Below, piece after piece: positions 27,276 to 43,352 of a stretch of 64,000 nt of DNA. This DNA comes from a candidate division FCPU426 bacterium (GTDB taxonomy: Bacteria > Oederibacteriota > PGYV01 > Palsa-1178). The first letter of the stretch is position 1; the number at the start of each line of letters is the position of its first letter. The stretch spans positions 800,001 to 864,000 of the forward strand of contig CAWIXE010000002.1 in assembly GCA_963840035.1 (NCBI GenBank), in the 5' to 3' direction. The translations under genes and the position numbers were made by a program. A model generated the notes under the pieces. It had not been told where the DNA came from, ran no database searches, and was given only the letters and a program-made list of their open reading frames with translations.

Positions 27276-28350
27276 CGGTTCTAACATTTAACGCAACACT
27301 TTGATAGGATTATACTTTCAAAGGAGGCGTTAATAATCAATGAAGAATCCGAACTACAAGAGGTTAAGTTTCGAAGAACGGGAAGAAATTAGCAGGTATT
27401 TAGCAAGTGGTCTAAAAGCTGGCCGAATAGCAATGTTGATAGGTAGAAATAGAAGCACCATAACGAGAGAAATAAGAAAGGGTTTTAAAACAAATACATA
27501 TCGCGCGGTACAGGCGAATAATAGAGCCAAAAGAAACGCCAAAAGGCGAAGGTTCGGAAAACGTAAGATAGATAAGTGTAAAAGATTAAAAAGGTTCATT
27601 GAAAAGCATCTCTGGTTAAAGTGGTCACCGGAACAGATTGCAGAAAAATTGAAAATAGAGTATCCTACGGACATGGACATGAGAATATCACCCGAGAGTA
27701 TTTATGCATATTTGTATGTGAAGCCCAAAAGCCACTTGAAAAGAGAAGCTGCTAAAGCAGTTTCGGCAAAAGCATTCCAGGCGGTTTAAAAGGAATGCCA
27801 GAATGACCGGAATTGCAAAGGATTTAGAAGATATAACAAGCATAGATGAACGGCCTGCGGAAGTTGAAACACGAGAGATTCCCGGACACTGGGAAGGCGA
27901 CTTAATGATTGGCAGACTTCGGCAGTCAGCCATCGGAACGCTTGTTGAAAGAAAAACAAGGTATTTACGGATTGTCCGGTTAAAAAACAGGACGGCAAAA
28001 GAAGTCAAGAAACAATTTGAAGCTACGTTTAAGAAACACCCTAAACAACTTAGATTGAGCATGACATATGACCAAGGCAGAGAAATGGCGGATCATAAAG
28101 CTCTAAGTAAGGCGTTAAATATTAAGATATATTTTGCGCACAAGAGAAGCCCGTGGGAACGTGGAACAAATGAAAACACAAATGGGTTAATACGGCAGTT
28201 TTTCCCTAAAGGCACAGACTTCAATAAGATAAGTTTAAAAGAACTCAGGTATGCAGAAAGACTGTTAAATCAAAGACCCAGAAAAACTTTGGGCTGGAAA
28301 ACACCCGAAGAGGCGTTTTATCAAGATGTTGCGTTAAATACTTGAAACCA
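27276..28350 (+). mobile_element. IS30-family insertion sequence (ends approximate)
   Basis: Terminal IRs share ATTTAACGCAACA / TGTTGCGTTAAAT; AGTT present on both flanks; IS30 transposase inside. Confidence 0.9.
27340..28345 (+). pseudogene. IS30 transposase with a +1 frameshift at about 27746 (possibly a sequencing error)
   Basis: LSFEEREEI, STITREI, WSPEQIA; then GHWEGD, TYDQGREM, SPWERGTNENTNGLIRQ. Deleting one A gives the continuous LKRELLKQFRQKHSRR. Confidence 0.88.
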
Positions 28351-29725: not shown

Positions 29726-29753
29726 TGTCCTGCCTGTCAATTATTGTCACTTT

Positions 29754-30803
29754 TTACCCCGCAAATTGGTTGACATTTTGTTCTCCGGATTTGATCAAAC
29801 ACAACCCCATATCTACAACTGATTTTACCACGGCCTTCCTCACAACGTCAAGTTTATCCAGTCCCGGTATTTTCTGTTTTTCAATTTCCGCAATCGCATT
29901 TTCAGCTTTTTTAATTAGCTCATGCTTTTCTTCGTTTTTGTATATTTCTCCGTTTTTGAAAACTTCAGCGCTTGTTTTGCCGTCAAATATACGCCGCGGC
30001 ATTTCGTGATTAATCTCATAAATCGCTCTTTCAAATTTGGCGTATACTTTTTCGTAATTTAACCCTCCTTTTTCAGTTTTCAGATATTTCTCAAATATCT
30101 GATTTTCGCGCTCCAGTTTCCCGTTGAAAAGCGGATAATGCCCGGGGCTGGGCATCGTGAGAATCTCTTTTTCTTTCAAATAACTTATTAATACTTCGTT
30201 CTGAAACTCAGAACCCCTGTCAGTTTTAACCACAAGCGGTTTTATTCCCTGCTCGTTCATCACGCGTTCAAGCAGGATTTTCGCCTTTTCACCGGTATTT
30301 GAATAACTCATAATCCAACCAAGCACACACCTTGAGTACTCCTCAAATACCAGCTGAACATACACATACCCTTCTTCGCAGCGTATTTTAATCGTATCTA
30401 GCGCCCAGCTGACATGCTTTTTTAGCCATTCAACTGACTTGTACTCTTTCTTTCCCGCTTTTTGCTTTTTCCTGGGCCCAAAATACTCATAAACTATTTT
30501 TGCAACGCTGCTTGGCGATATACCCGCTTTTATTGCCAAAACATAATTAGTTGATATTTCCGAAAACCTCCGTTTTAATTCCAGCACCCGGAGTATTGTT
30601 TCACCAGACAAGGCCCACGGCGCATGTTTCGGCCCTGTCTTTTGGGGTTCCAGGGTATCTTTCTTTTTCCACGCATAATAATACTCCCTTGGAACCCCGA
30701 TTGAATCAAAATACGCCTTTATACTTCCTCCGTTTTGTACGGTTTCTTCGGCACTTCTGAGTATATTTCTTTTAACACTTTCCGCATATTGGCGTTTTTT
30801 TTT
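29754..30803 (-). CDS. IS3-like OrfB (rve/DDE), reached by -1 frameshift from OrfA
   Basis: WALDT, EEYSR, KTDRGSEF, NGKLER. The -1 frame is open from the A9C run (KKRQYAESVKRN...WALSGETILR); the stop lies inside the IR. Confidence 0.82.
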   Translation of the reverse strand, partial: KKKRQYAESVKRNILRSAEETVQNGGSIKAYFDSIGVPREYYYAWKKKDTLEPQKTGPKHAPWALSGETILRVLELKRRFSEISTNYVLAIKAGISPSSVAKIVYEYFGPRKKQKAGKKEYKSVEWLKKHVSWALDTIKIRCEEGYVYVQLVFEEYSRCVLGWIMSYSNTGEKAKILLERVMNEQGIKPLVVKTDRGSEFQNEVLISYLKEKEILTMPSPGHYPLFNGKLERENQIFEKYLKTEKGGLNYEKVYAKFERAIYEINHEMPRRIFDGKTSAEVFKNGEIYKNEEKHELIKKAENAIAEIEKQKIPGLDKLDVVRKAVVKSVVDMGLCLIKSGEQNVNQFAG

Positions 30804-31225
30804 GCGCCGTCTTCATCGTTTTTTTCAAAGAAGCTCGTTGCTTTCCTGGCTATCTGCAGTTCCTGTGTCGCCTTTTTCTTTTCTTCCTCCAGTATCCGGA
30901 TCTTTTCCTCCAGCTTCCGCTGTTCTTCCTGCGCCTTTGTCACTGTTTCCCTCAGATCCTCTTCCTTCACGTAGTTCTTCGGCTTCCTGCCTCTCTTCTC
31001 CGTCTTCAGGAACGCCCTGGCTATCCCTTCCAGCGCTATTTTCTTCCACTCCCGGAACGTCTCCCTCGATATATCCATCTCCTCGCAGACCTGTTTCACC
31101 TTCTTTTCCTTTGCCATTACTTTCAGTACTGCCTGAAACTTCACCTCGTATGGGATTTCCCTGTAGTACTTCGTGGATTTCTGTTCCATCATTTCCTGCT
31201 GAATTTTCTCCTGTTCCATTTTCAA
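30719..31225 (-). CDS. IS3-like OrfA (HTH plus coiled coil)
   Basis: YEVKFQAVL...KQVCEEMDISRETFREWKK HTH, leucine-zipper-like LEEKIRILEEEK, ending near A AAA AAA AAC. Confidence 0.82.
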   Translation of the reverse strand: MKMEQEKIQQEMMEQKSTKYYREIPYEVKFQAVLKVMAKEKKVKQVCEEMDISRETFREWKKIALEGIARAFLKTEKRGRKPKNYVKEEDLRETVTKAQEEQRKLEEKIRILEEEKKKATQELQIARKATSFFEKNDEDGAKKNANMRKVLKEIYSEVPKKPYKTEEV

Positions 31226-32399
31226 TTACCCCCTTATTTTCTTTATTTTCCTTTTTTTCCTCCACTGCATCTAACCCCTCAACCATAACACTTCCTTCTT
31301 TTGCTATTACCCGTATTTCTTTTCCGCCTATTTTTCCGATTAAATACATAGGCTCTTTTAATTTTCTCGGGTCAACAATTAGCGCGTCTTTTACCATTCC
31401 TGCCCCTTTTTCCATAACTTCACGCACCGACTTTTCAACGCTGAAAAACCTGTCAGCAGGCAGTAACCCATCAATCCCCTGATGCGGCCTTTTGAAGTTA
31501 TACCATTCCACCCATTTTCCTATCTTTTCCTGCGCGTCTTCAAAGCTGGATATCGGCTCTTTACTTAGTAATTCCTGGTACATATTCCGCCAGAGCGATT
31601 CAACTTTTCCGCAGGTTTGGGGATGATACGGCCGGCTTCTCAAATGGCTTATTCCGCTTCTTGTAAGGAATTTTTGAAATGTGCTTTTCCCCCTCCAACT
31701 GGCAAACTGCCTGCCGTTATCAGTAAGCACTTCTTTTGGCATGCCGTACTTTTCTATCGCGTTTTTTAGCACATCCAGGACCCTGTCGCTGGTTTGGTTC
31801 CGAAATACCCCTATACTGACGACAAACCGCGAATAATCATCCAGACATGCTATTACATATATCCGGTACAGCCCCTGCAGCATAAATGTCATTATATCCA
31901 TCTGGTACATGTCGCCGGGTTTGCTTCTTTCAAAACGCTGCGGTTCCTTTTGACTATTTCCATGCCGCAGGCTTTTTTCCTGTACCATTGTTGCTGTCTG
32001 AGGGTCGGTTCGGAGGACTTTTTCAATACCGTCGCGGCATACTTTTACGAACTTATTGCGCATCAAATAATCCCCGATTTTCTTAACTCCAATTCCGGGA
32101 TTTTCCAGCTTTAATTTGACTATTTCCGCTTTTACCGCTTCCGGTACTTCCTGCGCTACTTTGCCGCCGCGGTTATCTTCCAGCCCCTCTTCACCGCCTG
32201 TTTTGTACCTTTCTTGCCAGCTTTTAAAAGTACCGACGCCCATTCCATACCACTTACAGAACATAGTAATAGGCGCACCTATCTGTTCAAATTCTTTTAG
32301 CAGTTTTAGTTTTTCTTCTTTTGAGTAGATTTTACCGGCGGAGTCGCTTTTTGTGTATTTTCTCTTTCCCTTTTCTTTCTTTTTCTTCATGAACCACAT
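30825..32399 (-). CDS. IS481-like transposase (HTH-HTH-rve) with a long tail overlapping OrfA
   Basis: KSWQERYKTGGEEGL, YQMDI, LDDYSRF, LTDNGRQF, HPQTCGKVE, WYNFKRPHQGI. Confidence 0.9.
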   Translation of the reverse strand: MWFMKKKKEKGKRKYTKSDSAGKIYSKEEKLKLLKEFEQIGAPITMFCKWYGMGVGTFKSWQERYKTGGEEGLEDNRGGKVAQEVPEAVKAEIVKLKLENPGIGVKKIGDYLMRNKFVKVCRDGIEKVLRTDPQTATMVQEKSLRHGNSQKEPQRFERSKPGDMYQMDIMTFMLQGLYRIYVIACLDDYSRFVVSIGVFRNQTSDRVLDVLKNAIEKYGMPKEVLTDNGRQFASWRGKSTFQKFLTRSGISHLRSRPYHPQTCGKVESLWRNMYQELLSKEPISSFEDAQEKIGKWVEWYNFKRPHQGIDGLLPADRFFSVEKSVREVMEKGAGMVKDALIVDPRKLKEPMYLIGKIGGKEIRVIAKEGSVMVEGLDAVEEKKENKENKGVIENGTGENSAGNDGTEIHEVLQGNPIRGEVSGSTESNGKGKEGETGLRGDGYIEGDVPGVEENSAGRDSQGVPEDGEERQEAEELREGRGSEGNSDKGAGRTAEAGGKDPDTGGRKEKGDTGTADSQESNELL

Positions 32400-32490
32400 A
32401 TATTTTACCTCCTCTTTCGTTGAATTTCCAGAGGTAAAATGTCAACCTATTTCAATGGGTTAGCAGTTATGATAATTGACGGCTAGGATA

Positions 32491-35400
32491 ATGAAAAGCG
32501 CCAGGTCATAACTGCCGTTTGCCAGCGATGATATGTCCCACACAGCCAGTTTGCCGCCGCTGTTTATCTGCATGTTCTTTGCAGTGGTTGTCACGGCGCC
32601 TCCGGTGTATTCCTCTGGCAGTTCCAGATATGTGTATCCTTCATCAGGATTTCCGTTTTCATCCATAACCACATAGTCAGACGGCCTGTATCCGAGCATA
32701 TATCCCCTGAAAGCCTCGCCGCCGGTGGCGATCCCGGTCACTGCAAGAGTATCACCGTCTGCCTCCGCGTTTAACACCATATCATCAGAGGCGGCTTTTC
32801 CGCCTATCTGGTTTATCTGCGGCACTATCCTTCCTTTTACTATATAGCACGTGCCGGCGCATTCATTGCCGAAAACATCCTGAACGCGTATTTCCGCCCT
32901 GTAAACGCCGTCAGGTACATATCCGTAACCGCTCCCCATATCGCCCATGCCGTCCCATGTGATGCCGTTAACCGGCGCTGAAAGCACACTGCGGTATTGT
33001 GAAGTATTCGCTGTATCCGTCAGGAAGTTATAAAAATAATATTTTTCTCCCCTGTACTCGTCTATGTCGCCGTATATGCCTGAGTAGCGCAGGGTTATGG
33101 CTTCCTTTTTTTCTATGCCGTCGTATAATTCCCTGACGACCTTTCTCTGCGACGGATTGCTTTCATTTGTGGTAATTCTTACATCAGCGTATACATACTT
33201 TGAAGTGGCTGCCATGGGCGTAAAGTATATGGCTGTGCATGTCCTGCCCTTTGACTCCTCTTCAGGGTTGAAAATAAACGGAGAGGCATACGGAGGGTAG
33301 CGCAGTACAGGCGGTTTGTCTGCCGGAAGAAGATAGTACTTTCCTTTTGCCTGAGCCACCTTTGTCATGGCAGTATAAGCGCCGGCAGGCTTCTGCGTCC
33401 CGGCTATGAGCGCCCTTGCTGTGGTGGTGACGCACTGCGCGCCGCATGTATTGCTCTCTGTCTCGTTATATATACCCAGATTATCAGCGATTATACTTTT
33501 TGCCTTTGCCTTTTCATCCGCGTACACATAATCAGCCGAACCTGATGACAATCCAAATATGGAATCAAGCCCGGGTATGTCAAGGTCTTCATCAGTGTAT
33601 CTTATGGTTATCTGCAGAGGCTCCGCATTATCGTACAGCAGTGTTGTATCCAGCGCGGGATATATGCCGTACTTGGATGTTATGGCGCTGTACATATCCG
33701 ACATAAGCGGCGGGCTGCAGGGTATGTTTTCAGAGTAGACATTTACGTACTGTGTATCCTTTACTTTCCACGCAGGAACAAAAAGCTCAAACTTTATGTA
33801 CGGGTCTGTCACTATGGTGCCTGCCGTGTTTGATACGTCTATAGGCGTGCCTATGGTCAGCTGCGCCCTGTCAACTTCCGCGTCCGCGCAGTCAGAGACG
33901 TAGTCATATCCCATGTTCACGTCGCTTATGGTAGTGCGTATGGTGTACTTGCCGTAGAGCCTTTTTGACCACACGTCCCATGCGGTCATAACCTGAAATA
34001 ACGGCCCTTCTTTCCTCTGATTTGAGGCTGTTATGCCGCCGTCAGTAGAAAAATATGTGCAGGAAGTATTTGCTTTATCTATCCAGCCGGGCGCGTATTC
34101 CATGCGCCACTCGCTTAGCTTTAGCGCGTCAGCGCCTCCCATGGCTGTGATAAATGACCTTCCGGTATATCTGCTTTTAAGCTTAAACCTAAACTGCCCG
34201 GAAGCGGGCACTTTATTGTCTGTGATTTCAGACCCGTTTATATCTGCCATGACAAGGTCAGGGTTTATAGTGTCGTCAGGATAGGTTACCCTCACGTCTT
34301 TTCCGCCGCATCCGGCCGCGGTTATGACATCGCTCATGGCGCTTTCCCCGAGCCGTGCTGAAAGGAAATTAATGATACCTCCGCCCTGAGCCGCGATACT
34401 CGCGCCTATCCCGAACAAGCCGTTATCATATGCCTTCCACTTGTATGATGTCATGGGCACAGCGCGCGAGCCGTCCTGCGGGAAGGATGTACCTGCAAGG
34501 TATGCTGTGAATTTCTTTTCCACTGTATACCCTCCGGCGTTCATGGTCCAGACATTTATGTTGTTTTTCCCGGCGTGCGGCAGGGGTATGTCCAGCGCCC
34601 AGTCAGCCTTGCCGCGCTTGCCGTCTGCCGTGGTCATCAGGGTGGTGTCTATTTTCAGGATTGTTGTTACCACCGGGCCGTTATCAGCCTGCCCGTACAC
34701 CTGTATGAACTGCGGGAAGTAATCAGAGGCCCACCCTTCCACATGCAGTATGGCCCTGTCAGTGCTTACCCCGCGTATAGCACCATCATAACTCTCCAGC
34801 GGCTTTTCCGCCTGCGGCCTGTAGGGATAAAAGACCCCTATTTCACCCGGCTCATCTATATCCTTCATAATCTGCTCGGGGTTCATCTGCTGACCCTTAC
34901 CGTAGCTTAAGGAACTCAGCATTTCATTTAGCAGTTCACCGAGGAACGGTATGAAATCAAGCTTTATGGGTATGGGCAGTTCCAGCTTCGGGAAATCAGG
35001 AAGTTTTAGTTCCTTCATTATTGCCGTGCCTTTTTTCGACACCTCATCACGCATGTTTTTTATAACCGGATTGTCGCTTCCAAGCTGATTTTGCACTGTA
35101 TTCAAGAGATTTCCGGGTTTTGTATTAAATATTGAAACTATTATTGGCCCTATGTTTGTAATGCCGCTTGTTATTGGCTCAGGTACATAGTGTAACATTT
35201 TCAATAAATCACCTATCAGACCCATCATTTCTTCATCCAGTGTCACAGGAGCCTTATCAGAACCGCCGCTTGCCTTTATGGTAAGTCTTTTTAGTTTTGA
35301 AAGGTTCGCGGATACAGCGGATAAATTCCTGTTACTGAATGTATCAAGCCATTTCCCGCCTTTTTGTATATCACTCTTTGTGCCGTCATACTTTTCTATA

Positions 35401-38400
35401 TAGTCTGCCACCTTTGTAGCCATGTCCCATATCTCTTTTTCCCAGTCTATGTCTTTTAAATCAGGTATAGAACTTGATTCACAACCGCCCAGTATGGACT
35501 TGGTTACAGTCTCAGAGCTTATCATGCTCTCTAACTGACTTGCTGTTATTTTATTTCCGCCAAACCCGGGAAAATTATTTCCACCCGGTATTTTATCTGT
35601 CAGTTTATCAAGCTCTGATGCACCTGCTTCCATGGCTTTACTTACTGCCCCATCTACTGCTTTAAAAGCATAGGCTTTTATGGTTCCCTCTGCCCATGTC
35701 TTGCCGTATCCGATGGCCCCCTGTAAAAGGTACTGAGCAAATCCCGGATTAGAAGTCATCTGCAATCCGCCAAGCAGAGCCATGCCTATGCTTACCTTAT
35801 TTGCTATTTTCTGGAATTCCATAACCCTGTCTATGGCTTCCTGATCTATCCCGCCCGCGCCGAGAAATGCGCCCGCGATGGCCACGCTTGCCAGGTCATC
35901 TGCCATTTGCATGTTATTTGTATTTCCCATGCCGTTGGGGTCTGTTAAGTAATTTAATACAGCGTTTCCGGACATACCGTCTGCTATTATCTTTGAGTTT
36001 GCGGGCGTATCTTCTGCATTGCCTTTTGGCATTATCATGTTCATAGCCCCGTCTAAGCCGGTGTCTATGGTATCACACGCGTTAAATTTTATATTATCAA
36101 GACCTTTGCTCATGTCGAGCTTGACGAAAAGAAGCTGGGGCGGTTTTACCCCCCTGAAATTCAGGCTTAAGTTAAACATCCCGGATAACTGCTTCCATAC
36201 ATCCGGCCCCTGAAGCTTATCAGGAAACCAGGCTATCTTCCACTTGGATAAATCCAGCCCCCATTTAAGTCCGCGTAAATCAGGCCGTGGTATTGCTTTT
36301 AATATCCCGGACAAATCAGGAACCTGCATACCAGGTATCCTGAATAACTTCCACAAATCAATCCCCGATAACTGCGGTAATATGCACAAATCCTGCCCCT
36401 GGTCATTTTTTAATCCAAGGTCACTTATAAAAGAAGCTAGCGTTGCCCCTGAAGCTATTTTCCCCGCCACAAAATCCGCGCTTTGCATGTTCACGCTTTT
36501 TAATCTTAACTTGTCACTTTCAGACATACAGGACAAATTGAGGTTGGGTAGCAGGTCTTTAATCGCTGCAAGAAGATCAAAACTGCCGAAGTTGATGTTA
36601 AGTTTGCTTAAAAGATCTTTCCAGTTTATTTTTAAGTCAGGAGCCTGGAAATCAAGGTTAAAAGAACTTGAGACCGAAGTCCCGGTTAAGGGTTTTACGA
36701 TACCTGTGTAATCCTGTCCTATTTTTTCAGGGTCAGCATCCGCGGATTTTATCATTGAAAATATATTAGTTTCATCCGAGCCAAGAACGCTGTGCTCATA
36801 CCCTTCCGCTTCATATAATCCATTATCTTTAAGTACAGGTGATTCTACAACTTGATCATTGAATGCCGCGTTATATTTGTCACTTACCTGCACGGCCAAA
36901 ACAATCGGGATAGACTCATTATTTTTAACGTTCGAGAGCAAAGAATCATATTCGGCTTTAGATATTTTTCCTTGGATTATTTCGGGGTATTCAGGATTAT
37001 TTTTTATTACATCGTATTTTATTATAGGTACTTCGTTTGCTTTTGGAAACTTTTTGTTCTTTAACGTTATTAATTTAGCGCTTAACTCTTCAGTAAAATA
37101 CAATCTTACGTCTAGGACGTTTTTATTGTCAGCACCTTTTGGCGGCTTTGATGCTTTTACACTTCTCAAAAAAAGATTGTTTTCAAATTTTACATTACCC
37201 CATTCAATCTGATAAACCGGATTACACCCCTGCATTATTTCAACCCGTTTTAGATAAACAGGACGCCACTTATAAAACTTTTCCAAGATGTCCTCTTCAG
37301 ACCAATTTTGGTCGCTTAGATACATAGCCCCCCCATGCGCTCATACCGCATTTGGAACCATTTAATAAGTCCGGCGGAACAGCTACGTCTGCTTCATCGA
37401 CAATATTTTCATGCAGATATGATTGAGCTTGTTTTATGACATTTTGTGAGCTTTGAATTATAGTATTTTTTGCGTTTTTCCCGGTTGAGTATCCAAATAC
37501 GTTAGTTAATAAATACGGAATTACCACTTTGTCATAGACACGCGTTCTTTTGAAATCATCTTTACTCATCAGTATTTTATTGAACCAAAAAGCCTTAACG
37601 TAGTATCTGATGTTTCCGTCCTGACTGATGGGCTTTGCTATATCATTTATGGCAAGGTTTATTAAATCCTTTGTTTTACTGCTGCCATAAAATGTTTTAT
37701 AAGGGATATAGTATTTCTGGCTGTCAGTATAACCATTTACTTTTATGTCCACATCAGAATTATTGTATGATTCATGTAATAATAAAGTGTAAGCCGCAAC
37801 AGCAAGCGCTTTAAAGCCATTTAAATATTTCGTGTCAGAAAAATCAGCATCACCAACCAGCCCATATAGTACGCCTTTTAAGTAATCTCTGATATCAACA
37901 TTCAGTATTTCAGGAGACGGAGTCGGTATAGGCACGCCAGTCTGAACAACCGTCGGAGTAATTGTTCCTGTTTCAATACTTGTAGCCGATGAACATGGTG
38001 TTAATAACACGATTTCCGTCGATTCTTCCGTAGGTATTTGATGCAGATCTTTAATAATGACTTTGTTCAGATAAAATACTGTTGCTGTCGGTGTTGGCAC
38101 AGTCGGGGTTGTAGTGCCGGACGGAGTTGCAGTGATTTTGCCTGAATATAAAACGAATTCTTTTGGCACTATAACAATTCTATGATTAGTATCCGCCCCG
38201 CCAAGATTAGTTTCATCTTGATCCTCCTCTGACATTTTGCTCTCATAACTCAGCCATTTTCCGTCAGAAGTTCTTTTTGCAACAGTCTCTGGATCCCGGT
38301 CAAGTTTATCCTGCATAAGACTATGTGCTTCTACAAATAAAAAATATTTGTCACTATATTTCCTCGCTTCTTCATCTGACAACTCACAACTCCCGGTCCA

Positions 38401-39660
38401 TTTAGTATATACCGTGCCACCGGCATCAACCTCCATCGGGTCGAACCAGCCATCAACAGAATCCGGTTTAAATTCGACAGTAAATTTACTATCCTTAGCA
38501 TTTTTTTTAAGACCAACTGATATTTTCTCTTTTCGCCATTGGCCGTAGTATTTTACAGTCATTGCCTTGCTAAAAAACAGTGTAATTCTGATTTTTCCCG
38601 AACCAATATTTCCTGTTTTAGTAATGCTCATAGGACCGCGGGCGGTTTCTATTCCGTTCGAGTCTTTCGTTACAGGCCATTCAGCAGCATACACAGTCTT
38701 CCAGTCTGCAGGGGTTTTGTCAACTTTATTAAAATCTTCAAATGTTATCTGTTCTAATTTCACTTTTTTCAAATATGGCGGGGACATACGTCGTGGTTTG
38801 TAATTTTCACCGCCATCCGATCTTTCTATATTGCATGATTCATAGTTTGCATTTGTTTTTAGTGTATACGCGCAATTAAAGACCCTCGGCATATTTCCAG
38901 ACAAATACTGATTATCAGAAGCATCTATCGTGTTTAAGGTATTTGCACTTGGTGGCTCAATCGCAATCGCAACATGATTTTTATTAGCTAACGGCCTTAT
39001 TATTAAGTCTCCGGGTCCTATTTCATTCCACATTAAGGGATCAGAAAAAATATCATTCGCAAGATGTCCTACCCCCGGATGCCATGCAATTCCGTTGGTC
39101 TTTACTATCAATGGAATTCCATAACAATTTGCAACAAGTCCTGAACAATCAATCCCGGTATAATCATACATTTCATATTCGCCATTAATCGGCGGACGAT
39201 AATTTGGATAAGGAGGATTATTTACAAGGTTCGAATCGTAAATTACGTTATATCCTCCCGCAAGACATTGCGGCCTTCTATTTGGAGTTAGGTTTGATAA
39301 CAATTTTCCGCCAGTCAGTTGTCTTCCGCCATCGCCCATGATTTCAAGCGAATCGCGCAAACCATAGCCATATGGGACGCCTGTATATAAATATCCTGCA
39401 GGAACTACATTGCCGGAATTATCAACCGCACCGACACCGTCGGGGAAGAATGGAAAAGGTGTAGCATTATTTCTATCACTTCCATCTACATTGGAAATGT
39501 CAGCATGCAATGTATTTGTAAACACCCTGGCGTTTGTTATGGAACACTTCCATTTATGATCACGGTAGCTTTTTGCCACTTCAACGACGTCATTCCCGTC
39601 TTTGGCAATTAATTCGCTACAAAACACACAAATCAGAAAAAAACTTAATAACTTTCTCAA
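32491..39660 (-). pseudogene. Giant secreted multidomain protein (NlpC/P60, duplicated novel domain, degenerate SpoIID-like, degenerate alpha/beta-hydrolase, Ig/FlgD-like); split at a G7 tract (37328-37334) and truncated by the element
   Basis: Signal peptide; GIDCSG...NHVAI; YLKGVL...KALAVAAYT. G6 instead of G7 fuses the two ORFs through GMSAWGAMYLSDQNWSEEDILEKFY (SpoIID C-terminal motif). Also ITWDGMGD...VPDGVYRAEI and WDISSLANGSYDL. Confidence 0.8.
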
Positions 39661-39674
39661 AAAAACACCTCGGT

Positions 39675-40871
39675 TTATTTATTTACTTTGGATAATTTTA
39701 TAATTCTTAATTTTGCCATACAGTCTTCACTTAAAGGCTTCCAGCATACGCTTTGCACCAAAAAAATTGTTCCATTATCATCAATAGTACCGTTTTCATT
39801 ATATTCTTCTGGAAAAATACCACATGGTCCTACCCAGTCCTTGCCCTTTCGAAACAACTCTGTTTTAATTTTTGAAATTAATCTGCCATCATTATTGACG
39901 ACAAAAATACCGCTTAAATCTTTGTCATTGCCAGTATATATATATACGTATATATTCCCGTTTTTGTCATACAGAGCACTATTATTGAGTGTTTGACACT
40001 GCACAAATTCAAAAATATCTTTTATTGATTCTATGTTAACTCGATAATTATTCTTGTTTTTTCCATAGGCGTTTATCGACGCCGTGTGTTTTGCCAGACC
40101 ATTATTTTCTTCTTTTTGAAAAGCTGTTTTACTAATTGTCCTTGAATATCCTAAATCCACAAATCCTTTTTTCATTTGTTTCGCTAGTTCGTCATTTTCA
40201 ATCTTTAAATCAACAACCCTGCTGACTAAACCAGCATCGTTTAGCACTTCTACAGTCCTATTAACAGAGTCATACAAATATATCGACCCGTTCTCAGCGA
40301 CATGTAACGAGCCTTTATTTATCATGGGTTTCATATTATCTGTTACTTTGTTCTTTTTTAGTTTATAAGGATTGCTTATAAATATTTGTTTCAAAAAATT
40401 TCCATTTAAATCAAACTTCTGGATTCTCGCATTGCCCTGATCAAGTATGTATATAAACTTGTTCGTAATTTCTACAGCAACTGCGCTATATATCAAAAAA
40501 GTACCCGGTGGGGTTCTGTTATTGCTTGTGTACTCATAAATATCATCATTATTTTTATCGTCCGACCCCATTATTGTCTTACCTTTATAATGTATTCTGT
40601 AACCAGCATCTTTTCCAACAAAAGGCGCGTCCATTATCACCTTGTAATCATACTGCACAGGCAGTTTTGTGTCGTCTATCTCCGATAAATTGAGATTTAC
40701 TGTTATTATCTCGCCATCCGAAGCTGTTCCTGTCAAACTATCGCCAGATGATACCAGTGTTGAGGTTACTGAAACGGCAGTAATCTCAGACCCCACAGCT
40801 GCCATCCTCCCCTGCGCCATAACAACCGCGCAAAGAAGCGAAATTATACAAATAAAAATGATTTTTTTCAT
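39675..40871 (-). CDS. Secreted NHL/beta-propeller-like protein
   Basis: Signal peptide; FIYILDQGNARIQKFDLNGNFLK, GSIYLYDSVNRTVEV, DKNGNIYVY. Confidence 0.75.
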   Translation of the reverse strand: MKKIIFICIISLLCAVVMAQGRMAAVGSEITAVSVTSTLVSSGDSLTGTASDGEIITVNLNLSEIDDTKLPVQYDYKVIMDAPFVGKDAGYRIHYKGKTIMGSDDKNNDDIYEYTSNNRTPPGTFLIYSAVAVEITNKFIYILDQGNARIQKFDLNGNFLKQIFISNPYKLKKNKVTDNMKPMINKGSLHVAENGSIYLYDSVNRTVEVLNDAGLVSRVVDLKIENDELAKQMKKGFVDLGYSRTISKTAFQKEENNGLAKHTASINAYGKNKNNYRVNIESIKDIFEFVQCQTLNNSALYDKNGNIYVYIYTGNDKDLSGIFVVNNDGRLISKIKTELFRKGKDWVGPCGIFPEEYNENGTIDDNGTIFLVQSVCWKPLSEDCMAKLRIIKLSKVNK

Positions 40872-40888
40872 GTTTCCTCCAGTTTTAT

Positions 40889-42040
40889 TTACGGTATATA
40901 TTTTAAAATTTTGCCTTTATTGCTCTGTCTGTACGCAACATATGGCGTTCCGCTATAAACTGCAAGCGAAACAAATTCAGAATAATTTGTAATACTACTG
41001 TCTGCAAGTTTCGTCCATATAGATTGCGCGTTGTCATATCTGTATAGTATTATTTGATAACTTTTTGCATTTGTCATTCCAAAAGCCACGTAAGGTATAT
41101 CATTGTATACATCAATACTAGCTTCGCTAACGTCAGATGATACGTCATTCCCAATTGTGTTCCAAGAACTATTTCCGGTATTATATTTAAATAAATTAGG
41201 CACTCCGACATCATCCGTTGCAAAAAATAATGTTCCATTATTTGACGACTTTATGGTTTGAAACAGAAACGATTCTGAAAAACCATTTGTTCCAATTGGA
41301 TTCCAAGCATTCCCGAGGTTATCAAAAGAAACCACCGAACATAAACCATCTGAATTGTTAGAATAAGAAACATAAGGTATATTGTTATATATATCAATCG
41401 CCGTATTAAAAACAGCCCCAGAAGTAATTCCCGGGCTATATAGCGCAGTAAAACTATTTCCTGAAGAATCAAATCTCATGACTGTTAGTTTATTTGAATT
41501 TGCGGCATCCTTGTAGGCGATAAATGGCGTGACACCATCTACAGCAAAGGAATTCTGTTCTGCAACCCCCGCCGAAAATCCGTACTTCCCCATTACAGTC
41601 CAAGTATTCCCAACACTGTCATACTTCATAACCGTCGCTTTTGAAGAGTTTGCAACGTCACTGAAAGCCACGTACGGTACTCCGGATGTGTCTAAATCCA
41701 TGCACACATAATCTGCCTCACCGGGTGATACCGCCTCGGCTCCCACCTGTGTCCACGCGCTTGCGCCGCTCACGAGCTTTTTTACCACGGCTTTCTTTGA
41801 CTGCCCTTCATCTTTATATGCCACATACAGCGTCCCGGCAGAGTCTGCTTTTAAGGTCACATACTTAACATCCGTATCACAGAACACCCCTCCGGCCACA
41901 GTCTCCCAGTGTACCGGCGTAGGTGAAGGATCCGCCGGAGGCGCTGCCGGGTTATTGTTCTTTTTCCCGCATCCAGGCATAAGAGCAACCGCGATAAATA
42001 CAACCAGTAAAACTATTATAACCTTGTTATTTTTTTTCAT
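40889..42040 (-). CDS. Lipoprotein with beta-propeller-like repeats
   Basis: Lipobox MPGC, Pro-rich linker, about 7 repeats of GxPYVAY/F..D..NS.KxTVMKY....W..VG. Confidence 0.8.
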   Translation of the reverse strand: MKKNNKVIIVLLVVFIAVALMPGCGKKNNNPAAPPADPSPTPVHWETVAGGVFCDTDVKYVTLKADSAGTLYVAYKDEGQSKKAVVKKLVSGASAWTQVGAEAVSPGEADYVCMDLDTSGVPYVAFSDVANSSKATVMKYDSVGNTWTVMGKYGFSAGVAEQNSFAVDGVTPFIAYKDAANSNKLTVMRFDSSGNSFTALYSPGITSGAVFNTAIDIYNNIPYVSYSNNSDGLCSVVSFDNLGNAWNPIGTNGFSESFLFQTIKSSNNGTLFFATDDVGVPNLFKYNTGNSSWNTIGNDVSSDVSEASIDVYNDIPYVAFGMTNAKSYQIILYRYDNAQSIWTKLADSSITNYSEFVSLAVYSGTPYVAYRQSNKGKILKYIP

Positions 42041-42050
42041 TTTCCCCTCT

Positions 42051-43169
42051 TTATTTTGTTTTCTTAACCTGCATCCATTTAAACTCCACAGGCGTATTTA
42101 TTTCGTGGTTATTTATTTTTGTTATTATGCGGCTTTTTTCATTTCCCATACCGGACTCAACTTCCGTCTCTTCCGGCAGTTCGATTTCCTTTTCGCCCTG
42201 TATTGTTTTGAGATATTCCTGATCCCCTTGGGCTGTGAGCTTTGGGCTCTGTTTTCTTATTTTAGACCGCTTTTTCCCCTTCACCCTCATATGCCCTATC
42301 TTCTCCCCTGCAAGGTTATACATCTCCTGCTCTTCCACCATACCTGTCTTCATGTTTATCTTTTCCACACGTTTTGCTATCATGCCGCGGATGGCTTTGT
42401 CTTTGCTTTTATTAAACCATGCCACAGACTGCTCTTTAAGGGTTTCTCCGGCTTTATTTTTAGCCTTTGAGCTTCTTACTTTTTCTATGGCCTTATCCCA
42501 TTCATCATTCATCTTGCCTGTTTTTTTGTCCGTGTACTCCACTTCCGCAAAGTCATCTTTATCTTTCAGAAACCCCAGTAACCCACTGCCGCCTTTTTTC
42601 CTGCCCTTTACTTTAACGTCGAGTTCATCGGTTTCTATGTGGTTAGTATCAAAGCGTGAGGCATACCCCGCGTCAGTAAAACTCTTCTTACCGAAAGATG
42701 TCCCTGCAAGCGCCGCATACACGCTTCCGCCTTTTCCGTATCCATTGAGCCCGCCGATACCCGCTATCTTCTGCACCTCAGCCTGTACATCCGCATCCGC
42801 GGTGACCCGCACATGCGAGCCGTCTGCCATGAGATAAGTAACGGACATATCGGAAGTATCCACCAGAAACTGCATGGTAAAAATTCCATTTGTTGTGACC
42901 ATCACCTTATTATTCCCGGCGTTGTCAGATTGCATGACGTAGTCATAAGATAAAGCCTGGCTCTTGCCGCCATATTCCGTCAAAGACTCCACACCCGCTG
43001 ACAAACTCCGCACATCACCGCTGTTTTGTGACTGCGCATCTATGACATCCGCCACAGTGTATTCGCCTTCGGCGTATGTGTTGGAGGATAACACGAATGT
43101 AAATACAAAAACAAATAATGCAACAGATAATGAAATATTTAAACGCTTTGATAAGTGTTTGACAGTCAT
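42051..43169 (-). CDS. Secreted protein, possible LolA-like/lipoprotein-sorting fold
   Basis: Signal peptide (TYA-E); the C-terminal KINMKTGMVEEQEMYNLAGEKIG...LPEETEVE...INNHEIN pattern resembles LolA-like proteins. Confidence 0.55.
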   Translation of the reverse strand: MTVKHLSKRLNISLSVALFVFVFTFVLSSNTYAEGEYTVADVIDAQSQNSGDVRSLSAGVESLTEYGGKSQALSYDYVMQSDNAGNNKVMVTTNGIFTMQFLVDTSDMSVTYLMADGSHVRVTADADVQAEVQKIAGIGGLNGYGKGGSVYAALAGTSFGKKSFTDAGYASRFDTNHIETDELDVKVKGRKKGGSGLLGFLKDKDDFAEVEYTDKKTGKMNDEWDKAIEKVRSSKAKNKAGETLKEQSVAWFNKSKDKAIRGMIAKRVEKINMKTGMVEEQEMYNLAGEKIGHMRVKGKKRSKIRKQSPKLTAQGDQEYLKTIQGEKEIELPEETEVESGMGNEKSRIITKINNHEINTPVEFKWMQVKKTK

Positions 43170-43352
43170 TTTTACCCCACCCTTTTGTGTGTCTTATTGG
43201 TTTTACCGCAGATAATTATATGATTTCAAGCAAGTTGCGTCAAGCAGTAATAATGATTTATATTGAGGAATAATTGTAAGGCACATTGGATTTTGACATG
43301 CTAAATTATAATATAAATGAATATTCTGAGATTTGCGATTTAAATTATTCGG

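Follow-up and report, generated by a model that had tools for sequence, protein, structure and literature searches.

The stretch of DNA considered here (the window) comprises 64,000 nucleotides (nt) of a candidate division FCPU426 bacterium (contig CAWIXE010000002.1, positions 800,001 to 864,000), and the locus at window positions 32,491 to 43,169 is a broken copy of a three-gene cassette made up of a LolA-like gene, a head-specific partner gene and a giant gene. Comparison with relatives suggests, with a probability of about 0.6, that the cassette is an inverted polymorphic antibacterial system with cognate upstream immunity, in which the N-terminal head of the giant protein is predicted to cut the cell wall and the partner to inhibit the head. 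The sequences display the marks of polymorphic toxins, namely a variable effector domain on a conserved body and an adjacent gene co-varying with the effector type. Homologs of the first gene are labelled Ca. Goldiibacteriota in public records.

Exchangeable heads and matching partners

Members of the giant family carry, on one stalk, an NlpC/P60, M23, Glu-bearing SpoIID or GxSxG lipase head, or a head of one unnamed family. They are distributed as follows, G000 being the window genome:

NlpC/P60 heads: G000, G007, G022:C54, G014, G008:C196, L062, G022:C92
M23 heads (HxxxD and HxH-type motifs; Pfam): G022:C136, G008:C173, G037:C12, L055, L065, L066, P0073, P0076, P0077
Glu-bearing SpoIID heads: G023, P0072, P0078, L063, and G039 by eye
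GxSxG lipase heads: P0087, P0089, P0090, G042:C95b
Unnamed head family: P0081/G042:C95a, P0086, G027

In a sliding comparison to G007 (250 residues, nine members), residues 1-500 can be aligned with no member except the other one that has an NlpC/P60 head, whereas residues 1501-2500 hold 32-71% identity in all nine. Within genome G022, the NlpC/P60-headed copy (C54) and the M23-headed copy (C136) have nothing alignable over the first 400 residues but share 89-98% identity across residues 1001-2400. A stalk tree of 13 rows picked from 27 rejects a single clade both for NlpC/P60 heads (p-AU 1e-55) and for M23 heads (6e-5), much of the rejection being driven by the G022 pair. At G042:C95, two whole cassettes with different heads stand in tandem, and the cut 5' end of G042:C45 carries the end of a subtilase domain. 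An earlier note on the window had proposed a homolog survey for variable N-termini on a conserved scaffold and had named invariance beforehand as refuting; the N-termini vary. The genes also co-occur, as it had expected, and the gene directly upstream of the giant gene co-varies with the head.

This co-variation was followed in 26 partner genes, clustered after removal of 100 leader residues because shared leaders otherwise bridge clusters. Outside this table stand G007/G022 duplicates (L051, L054, L056, L057, L060, L061), loci stopping after the LolA-like gene (L052, L058, L073, L075, L077, L078), L053 and L059, as well as G002:C85, G041 and G042:C257/C337, where the partner is not assigned. 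The partner family of the window comprises 11 loci, eight of them before an NlpC/P60 head or stub, two at contig ends and one without a giant; the head is NlpC/P60 in 8/8 loci where it is known. In a second family, an M23 head lies behind 5/5 members, and head types are never mixed within any partner cluster. The partners of G042 stand alone, that of G039 pairs with that of G026, and two G027 genes pair with each other. The inspected partners carry signal-peptide-like leaders. Partner and head are AT-rich (35-40% GC; 34.6% for the partner gene of the window) against 51% in the stalk.

The partner in the window, a protein of 398 amino acids (aa), was rightly called a secreted NHL-like protein in the earlier note: its similarity to NHL repeats reaches E 3e-17. 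It is likely to be the cognate immunity protein or inhibitor of NlpC/P60 heads. A complex prediction of the NlpC/P60 head with this partner scored 0.01, which is uninformative either way. The first gene of the cassette keeps the LolA-like label that it had been given, with an Atlas score of 0.93 to PF17131 clusters and one relative matching PF17131 at E 8e-4. Its matches occur in 18/99 phylum genomes, while a PDB sequence search with the LolA-like family gave nothing significant (best E 0.54). The 372-aa product is likely a chaperone.

At ten other loci (G022:C62, G022:C92, G012, G003, G009:C63, G026, G027 twice, L062 and L063) the upstream genes are kept but the giant is missing, cut or reduced to a stub, the window being the eleventh. 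Truncated giants in G012, G022:C62 and L062 stop at the same short sequence (L099 4220-5600, L098 9450-10100 and the end of the L062 giant). Transposase genes, which we take to be of the IS200/REP-associated type, stand beside cassettes in G012, G027 (twice), G039 and G042 (loci include L101, L102, L026 and L107). These transposases and the common truncation sequence may drive head exchange or decay. In L103 5004-5765 (G026:C22), the start of a SpoIID-like head is in frame with an FlgD-like C-terminal segment, a fusion that apparently arose by deletion of nearly the whole giant gene.

The family is rare: among 1.84 billion representatives, a profile search picked out 24 proteins. A 300-residue giant core matches 12/99 phylum genomes, with three copies in one of them, and a 1,000-residue query adds G008. 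Complete members measure 5,100 (G007), 5,302 (P0072), 5,485 (P0073) and 5,805 codons (P0076); in G023 (7,010 codons) and G039 (6,246 codons) the long frame follows a head encoded in a frame of its own. RHS, HINT and filamentous haemagglutinin repeats were not detected in the giants by Pfam.

Heads of the unnamed family (L047 4496-5245, L101 4380-5057, P0086) have a conserved Asp-Gly-Pro..Asp..Trp pattern and their own partner family. No match to them was found in Pfam, NCBIfam or PHROGs. Their resemblance to a double-psi barrel is our presumption, which the database scans did not confirm. The family is a candidate new wall-lytic enzyme.

The broken copy in the window

Four co-directional minus-strand genes follow each other with intergenic gaps of 10, 17 and 14 nt, as the earlier note had read them, and a hydrophobic leader stands at the start of each. 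The unit of four that it proposed is reduced to three by comparison: the order conserved among relatives is LolA-like gene, partner, giant gene, and the lipoprotein gene has no blastp match in the relatives' loci. The features of the locus are listed in the direction of transcription:

43215..43243, minus strand: sigma-70-like promoter candidate with 11/12 consensus matches and a 17-nt spacer, 46 nt before the first gene; a consensus match only (3 sites seen vs 2.0 expected, weak alone)
42051..43169, minus strand: first cassette gene, secreted LolA-like protein, 372 aa
40889..42040, minus strand: lipoprotein with propeller-type repeats and a lipobox, 383 aa; weak Kelch/propeller matches; accessory
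39675..40871, minus strand: secreted NHL-type protein, 398 aa, directly upstream of the giant gene
37297..39660, minus strand: 5' frame of the giant gene, 787 aa, with signal peptide, NlpC/P60 head, Ig-like linker and a SpoIID-like domain that looks dead
37328..37334, minus strand: G7 run with a +1 frameshift, inside the C-terminal SpoIID motif; splits the giant gene
32460..37325, minus strand: 3' frame of the giant gene, 1,621 codons, about 1,610 of them up to the insertion at 32491
29726..32490, minus strand: insertion element of 2.77 kb with rve and HTH matches and imperfect terminal inverted repeats; cuts the giant gene

The 383-aa lipoprotein belongs to a repeat family with many paralogous segments across its own genome, and a Kelch lipoprotein is found at the matching position in G009:C63.

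Within the giant gene the following domains were delimited:

38776..39603, minus strand: NlpC/P60 peptidoglycan peptidase head with Cys172 (39145-39147), His229 (38974-38976) and Asp246 (38923-38925)
38161..38775, minus strand: Ig-like beta-sandwich linker (model residues 275-481, beta-sandwich matches with Z about 7); limits approximate
37266..38076, minus strand: SpoIID-like domain spanning the frameshift, Leu601 standing in place of the catalytic Glu; limits approximate
34836..36128, minus strand: helical region with a glycine-rich helical hairpin, probably a degenerate alpha/beta-hydrolase; its nucleophile position is occupied by Gly450
32491..34835, minus strand: conserved stalk, GC 51%, its first domain Ig-like (Ig fold Z 11.3 for model residues 490-615)

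The Cys/His motifs reported for the NlpC/P60 head are accompanied by a papain-like fold with a Cys-His-polar triad, and structure comparison confirms the fold (Z 10.8, rmsd 2.8, 115 aligned). The top 31 fold matches of the head are nearly all NlpC/P60 or CHAP-type cell-wall hydrolases (Z 7.6-10.8), and the motifs are kept in relatives. Neither a metagenome scan with a single sequence nor a search for longer proteins with the head turned up relatives.

The inner SpoIID-like domain named in the earlier note stands as a fold (Pfam SpoIID E 0.0016; Z 6.8 to 5i1t), being the exception among mostly noise in Foldseek on the 759-residue model, but it carries Leu where the catalytic Glu is expected. 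This Glu, mapped by motif to E101 of the C. difficile protein (PMC6221140), is missing in 18/19 inner SpoIID copies and present in 4/4 motif-matched SpoIID heads. A probably live SpoIID precedes a dead one in G023, P0072 and P0078.

The alpha/beta-hydrolase-like domain fared less well, as its catalytic Ser is absent and the assignment is weak. The nucleophile position is without Ser in 18/18 aligned inner rows, while the Ser of GxSxG is present in 5/5 lipase heads, and the helical region lies where P0087, P0089, P0090 and G042:C95b carry an intact lipase directly on the stalk. With a lipase-head profile, five family members rank first among 29 family proteins and 9,140 open reading frames (ORFs) of the genome (best E 7e-4). 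A model of residues 330-1000 of the 3' frame has a pLDDT of 46.8 and only its Ig domain was matched; alpha/beta-hydrolases are not among the listed matches, which is uninformative. An Atlas search with the helical region reached 0.79 at best and gives a lead only. Tentatively, the region may be a relic of a lipase.

Since the inner SpoIID-like and lipase-like domains are without catalytic residues, the giant reads as a single-warhead protein and not as the active multi-enzyme that the earlier note had described; of its enzyme-like domains, only the N-terminal tip looks catalytic. New heads appear to accrete while old heads decay; support for this is good in the case of SpoIID and tentative in that of the lipase.

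The stalk is the most conserved part of the giant family. The earlier assignment of Ig-like and FlgD-like domains holds for Ig; Pfam finds no FlgD match in the window copy, whereas FlgD_ig is seen in relatives. Inspection of the stalk by eye had suggested a ZU5-like autoprocessing domain, an idea dropped because Pfam gave no match at E 1. A PDB sequence search with the giant core gave nothing significant (best E 0.23), and the window giant has no strong internal membrane helix. At a distance of 30 kb, a gene for a 498-aa lipoprotein-like product (G000:C2:872013-873509) weakly resembles stalk residues 913-1248 (E 2e-12).

A single protein of at least 2,390 aa had been predicted for the giant gene. 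Instead, there are frames of 787 aa and 1,621 aa, split at the G7 run, across the position of which the relatives' giant genes have an uninterrupted frame. The 3' frame (32491..37325) contains a linker, the helical, possibly ex-lipase region and the Ig-rich stalk, and it is 35-54% identical to relatives of the Goldbacteria order across most of its length. About 2,390 codons lie between the start of the giant gene and the insertion element, and relatives extend about 2,700-3,200 residues beyond the cut point. The remaining part was sought elsewhere in the 3-contig, 98%-complete assembly and was not found. The best candidate for the missing end, a CBM3-plus-tail fragment (G000:C1:639052-639645), was rejected: in relatives, the LolA-like gene that lies downstream of this fragment comes after another, shorter gene of the CBM3-tail kind.

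The insertion element, which we take to be IS481-like, consists of two rve transposase genes and an overlapping HTH gene (DDE/rve transposases). Its three copies in the genome are 99.96-100% identical, and a target duplication is seen at none of them, which suggests adjacent deletions. The further copies, at approximately G000:C1:341298-344062 and 589168-591932, are flanked by unrelated genes. Beyond the element in the window lie ribH and nusB.

The breaks could be assembly errors, with an intact giant gene in the organism, although we consider this improbable. The frameshift sits in a G7 run, a nearby IS30 copy also has an extra homopolymer base, and the truncation falls at a repeat present in three copies. 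On the other hand, the missing 8-10 kb were not found in the 3-contig, 98%-complete assembly, the other element copies have unrelated flanks, and truncated giants are common in relatives. Contigs from one DNA sequencing run (share 0.09) span neither the G7 run nor the insertion junction, and neither site is covered by reads; among the sequencing runs, no RNA run was listed as containing the genome. Taken separately, the +1 frameshift is about equally likely to be a real mutation or an assembly error, and the truncation is probably not an assembly error. The IS30-type transposase in question (window 27340-28345) lies 10 kb away; one extra homopolymer base splits its frame, and two other copies (G000:C3) are intact 335-codon frames without that base. 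With its 3' end cut by the element, the window copy has no sorting tail and therefore no export by its own tail; it is a relic.

Predicted export, proposed mechanism and competing functions

The C-terminal-domain (CTD)-type tail suspected in the earlier note is absent from the truncated window copy and present in six relatives. G007, G009 and P0071 end in CBM3 and FlgD_ig/Por_Secre_tail, and the tail is common also to P0072, P0073 and P0076. The end of G007 comprises CBM3, FlgD_ig and TIGR04183 (36.9 bits over a cut-off of 23), and G039 has an FlgD-like domain near its end. Several intact relatives end in a cellulose-binding module and a type-IX-like sorting tail.

A check for type-IX-like genes, proposed in the earlier note, found SprA-like and PorV-like genes, though under the cut-offs. 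The window genome has a SprA-like gene (2,177-aa ORF, E 5e-21), as do 92/99 phylum genomes, and four PorV-like genes. FlgD_ig matches number 42 in the genome, and 33 ORFs end in a tail similar to that of the giants. A PorU-type peptidase (PF01364/C25) gave no match in the genome, but the positive control was silent too, so this search is uninformative, as was one with Pfam SprA_N. A sheath gene for type VI secretion systems (T6SS; PF05943, one marker) was not found in the 98%-complete genome, while its positive control was detected. We infer that the giant is exported by a type-IX-like route through SprA/PorV-like machinery. At least six other frames of G000 exceed 3,400 codons, several with sorting-like tails and two at contig ends. 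A separate conserved Goldbacteria pair consists of a CBM3-plus-sorting-tail protein followed by a second LolA-like gene (G000:C1:639052-640294; L116, L118, L119, L122, L123), hinting that LolA-fold proteins may accompany type-IX-like cargo generally.

In the proposed mechanism, the LolA-like protein, the partner and the giant would be exported by Sec. The giant would fold in the periplasm, where the head would endanger the producer's peptidoglycan if the partner did not bind it, and the LolA-like protein may chaperone the hydrophobic helical region. The C-terminal tail would then be read by the PorV/SprA-like machinery; because the export signal is C-terminal, the variable end would be the N-terminal one, with the partner gene upstream of it. 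Anchored to the cell surface, or through CBM3 to cellulose, the Ig-rich stalk would extend the head to neighbours, and Goldbacteria have been described as cellulose degraders (PMC7031533). Most simply, the targets would be neighbouring cells with exposed walls. Recombination would bring new head-plus-partner cassettes in between the LolA-like gene and the stalk, while the heads that preceded them would decay into spacers.

Several observations weigh against this antibacterial reading. For two of the seven M23 loci (G037:C12, L064) the partner falls outside the M23 cluster, the partners of SpoIID heads form no common cluster (those of G023 and L063 stand alone), and the stalk tree does not reject a single clade for SpoIID heads (p-AU 0.13). 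Not all loci are independent, as several stem from populations that are closely related. The loss of a 15-20 kb gene with its 1-kb neighbours kept is also expected from target size alone. As to decay, the inner SpoIID of P0076 retains its Glu, and the lipase-relic match is weak (hhalign probability 13-16%, window copy E 6.7). As to export, the SprA and PorV matches fall under curated cut-offs, G023 ends after CBM3 without a tail, and P0080, P0083 and P0086 end otherwise or are cut. Finally, the route of the head to the wall of an outer-membrane-bearing cell is unexplained.

The giant might instead serve feeding or predation, as a surface adhesin-enzyme that opens the walls of prey or dead cells, with the partner merely protecting the producer during periplasmic passage. 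Bdellovibrio is said to have a self-protection protein against its own endopeptidases. Every identified head is predicted to attack cell envelopes, two-step export would call for self-protection whatever the target, and giant proteins have been linked to prey wall digestion in Omnitrophota (10.1101/2023.11.21.568195). Nevertheless, the patchy presence (12/99), several heads per genome and frequent loss of the giant with the partner kept fit an arms race better, each protein has one active enzyme only, and the description of Goldbacteria as cellulose degraders (PMC7031533) also speaks against predation. We regard this explanation as rather unlikely.

A self-directed role appears less likely still: the head would trim the cell's own wall or matrix for separation, dispersal or the passage of large surface proteins, with the partner as regulator. 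The NlpC/P60, M23 and SpoIID families are mostly housekeeping autolysins, and the top fold matches of the head include LytE, CwlO and MepS. Such a function is hard to reconcile with the lack of a match to the core query in 87/99 phylum genomes, many of them near-complete, with a giant broken in a 98%-complete genome, and with the replacement of heads by others of unrelated chemistry. A sorting tail would, moreover, put the head outside the outer membrane, away from the cell's own wall.

Beyond the antibacterial reading itself, we put forward tentatively, at rather less than even odds, a new architectural class: a type-IX-like-exported, cellulose- or surface-anchored lance with warheads stacked on its N-terminus. 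Disarmed warheads would be kept as a record (lipase, then SpoIID, then NlpC/P60, M23 or fresh SpoIID). The class would include a dedicated LolA-fold chaperone, swappable upstream immunity, one or more unnamed families of wall-lytic heads and several families of inhibitors that are new.

Relation to known systems

Classical polymorphic toxins (PMC3482391) resemble the giant family in being large secreted multidomain proteins with a variable tip, a conserved body and an adjacent cognate gene, and also in their orphan remnants, occasional inactive enzyme domains and NlpC/P60 among the tips. They have, however, a C-terminal toxin and downstream immunity, which is reversed in the Goldbacteria giant: the C-termini of G007, G009, P0071-73 and P0076 are conserved CBM3/tail modules, and the variation is N-terminal. 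C-terminal tips are what defines polymorphic toxins; with an export signal at the C-terminus the layout has to be the reverse, as the giant family appears to show at scale.

For wall hydrolases that are N-terminal and have their immunity gene upstream, the nearest precedent is WHIX subclass II, "double-blade" T6SS effectors with N-terminal NlpC/P60 and M23 heads and upstream secreted immunity (PMC12135965). Variable N-terminal wall hydrolases and an upstream signal-peptide gene are common to both. The WHIX proteins are T6SS cargo with a second C-terminal toxin, whereas the giant family has a signal peptide, an Ig stalk of 5-7 kaa (thousand residues) and a sorting-like tail, and the T6SS sheath gene was not found in the window genome.

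TANFOR toxins of Bacteroidota (PMC7073777) are likewise large signal-peptide proteins with proposed type IX secretion, antibacterial tips and adjacent immunity, but they have a fixed N-terminal domain, C-terminal toxins and downstream immunity. The giant family carries its own sorting-like tail and lies outside Bacteroidota, and the TANFOR domain (TIGR02542) had no match in an NCBIfam scan of the window pieces and the full G007. Type IX cargo of Bacteroidota (type A CTD) shares the signal peptide and the C-terminal Por_Secre_tail/FlgD_ig, with SprA-like and PorV-like genes present; it differs in that the Goldbacteria translocon and shuttle matches are below curated cut-offs and export is a prediction.

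The immunity protein Tsi1 is a beta-propeller. It blocks the NlpC/P60 effector Tse1 of Pseudomonas aeruginosa (PMC3391265). As predicted for the window cassette, a wall peptidase of NlpC/P60 type (fold match to the head at Z 8.1) has a periplasmic partner, but Tse1 is a single small injected domain; the 398-aa partner gave no sequence match with Tsi1. The giant Omnitrophota predation proteins (10.1101/2023.11.21.568195) are also very large and exported, with wall-degrading and adhesion domains, in uncultured bacteria. They exceed 10,000-30,000 aa and have many membrane helices and SecA-like domains, whereas the Goldbacteria family has 5-7 kaa (longest frame 7,010 codons), no such Pfam matches and a swappable head with a paired gene.

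Further toxin fusions, N-terminal and type-IX-linked, are mentioned in PMC12419801; in the passages covered, none has the layout of the giant family. The family was not found described in the literature covered, which leaves aside subscription papers and supplements, and no weapon was found described for the host phylum in the literature returned. For the type-IX-like system of Goldbacteria, the cassette supplies a first candidate for a conflict cargo. It provides pairs of effector and inhibitor that can be tested for three classes of peptidoglycan hydrolase, among them candidate proteins that inhibit M23 and SpoIID enzymes, and G022 would be a natural cross-protection matrix within one genome. 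Domain accretion accompanied by decay also appears to be visible in the family.

The window genome may in addition hold a conventional pool of C-terminal polymorphic toxins, as orphan RHS-type C-terminal fragments lie beside insertion elements at G000:C1:340640-341308, 344814-345650 and 636369-636776.

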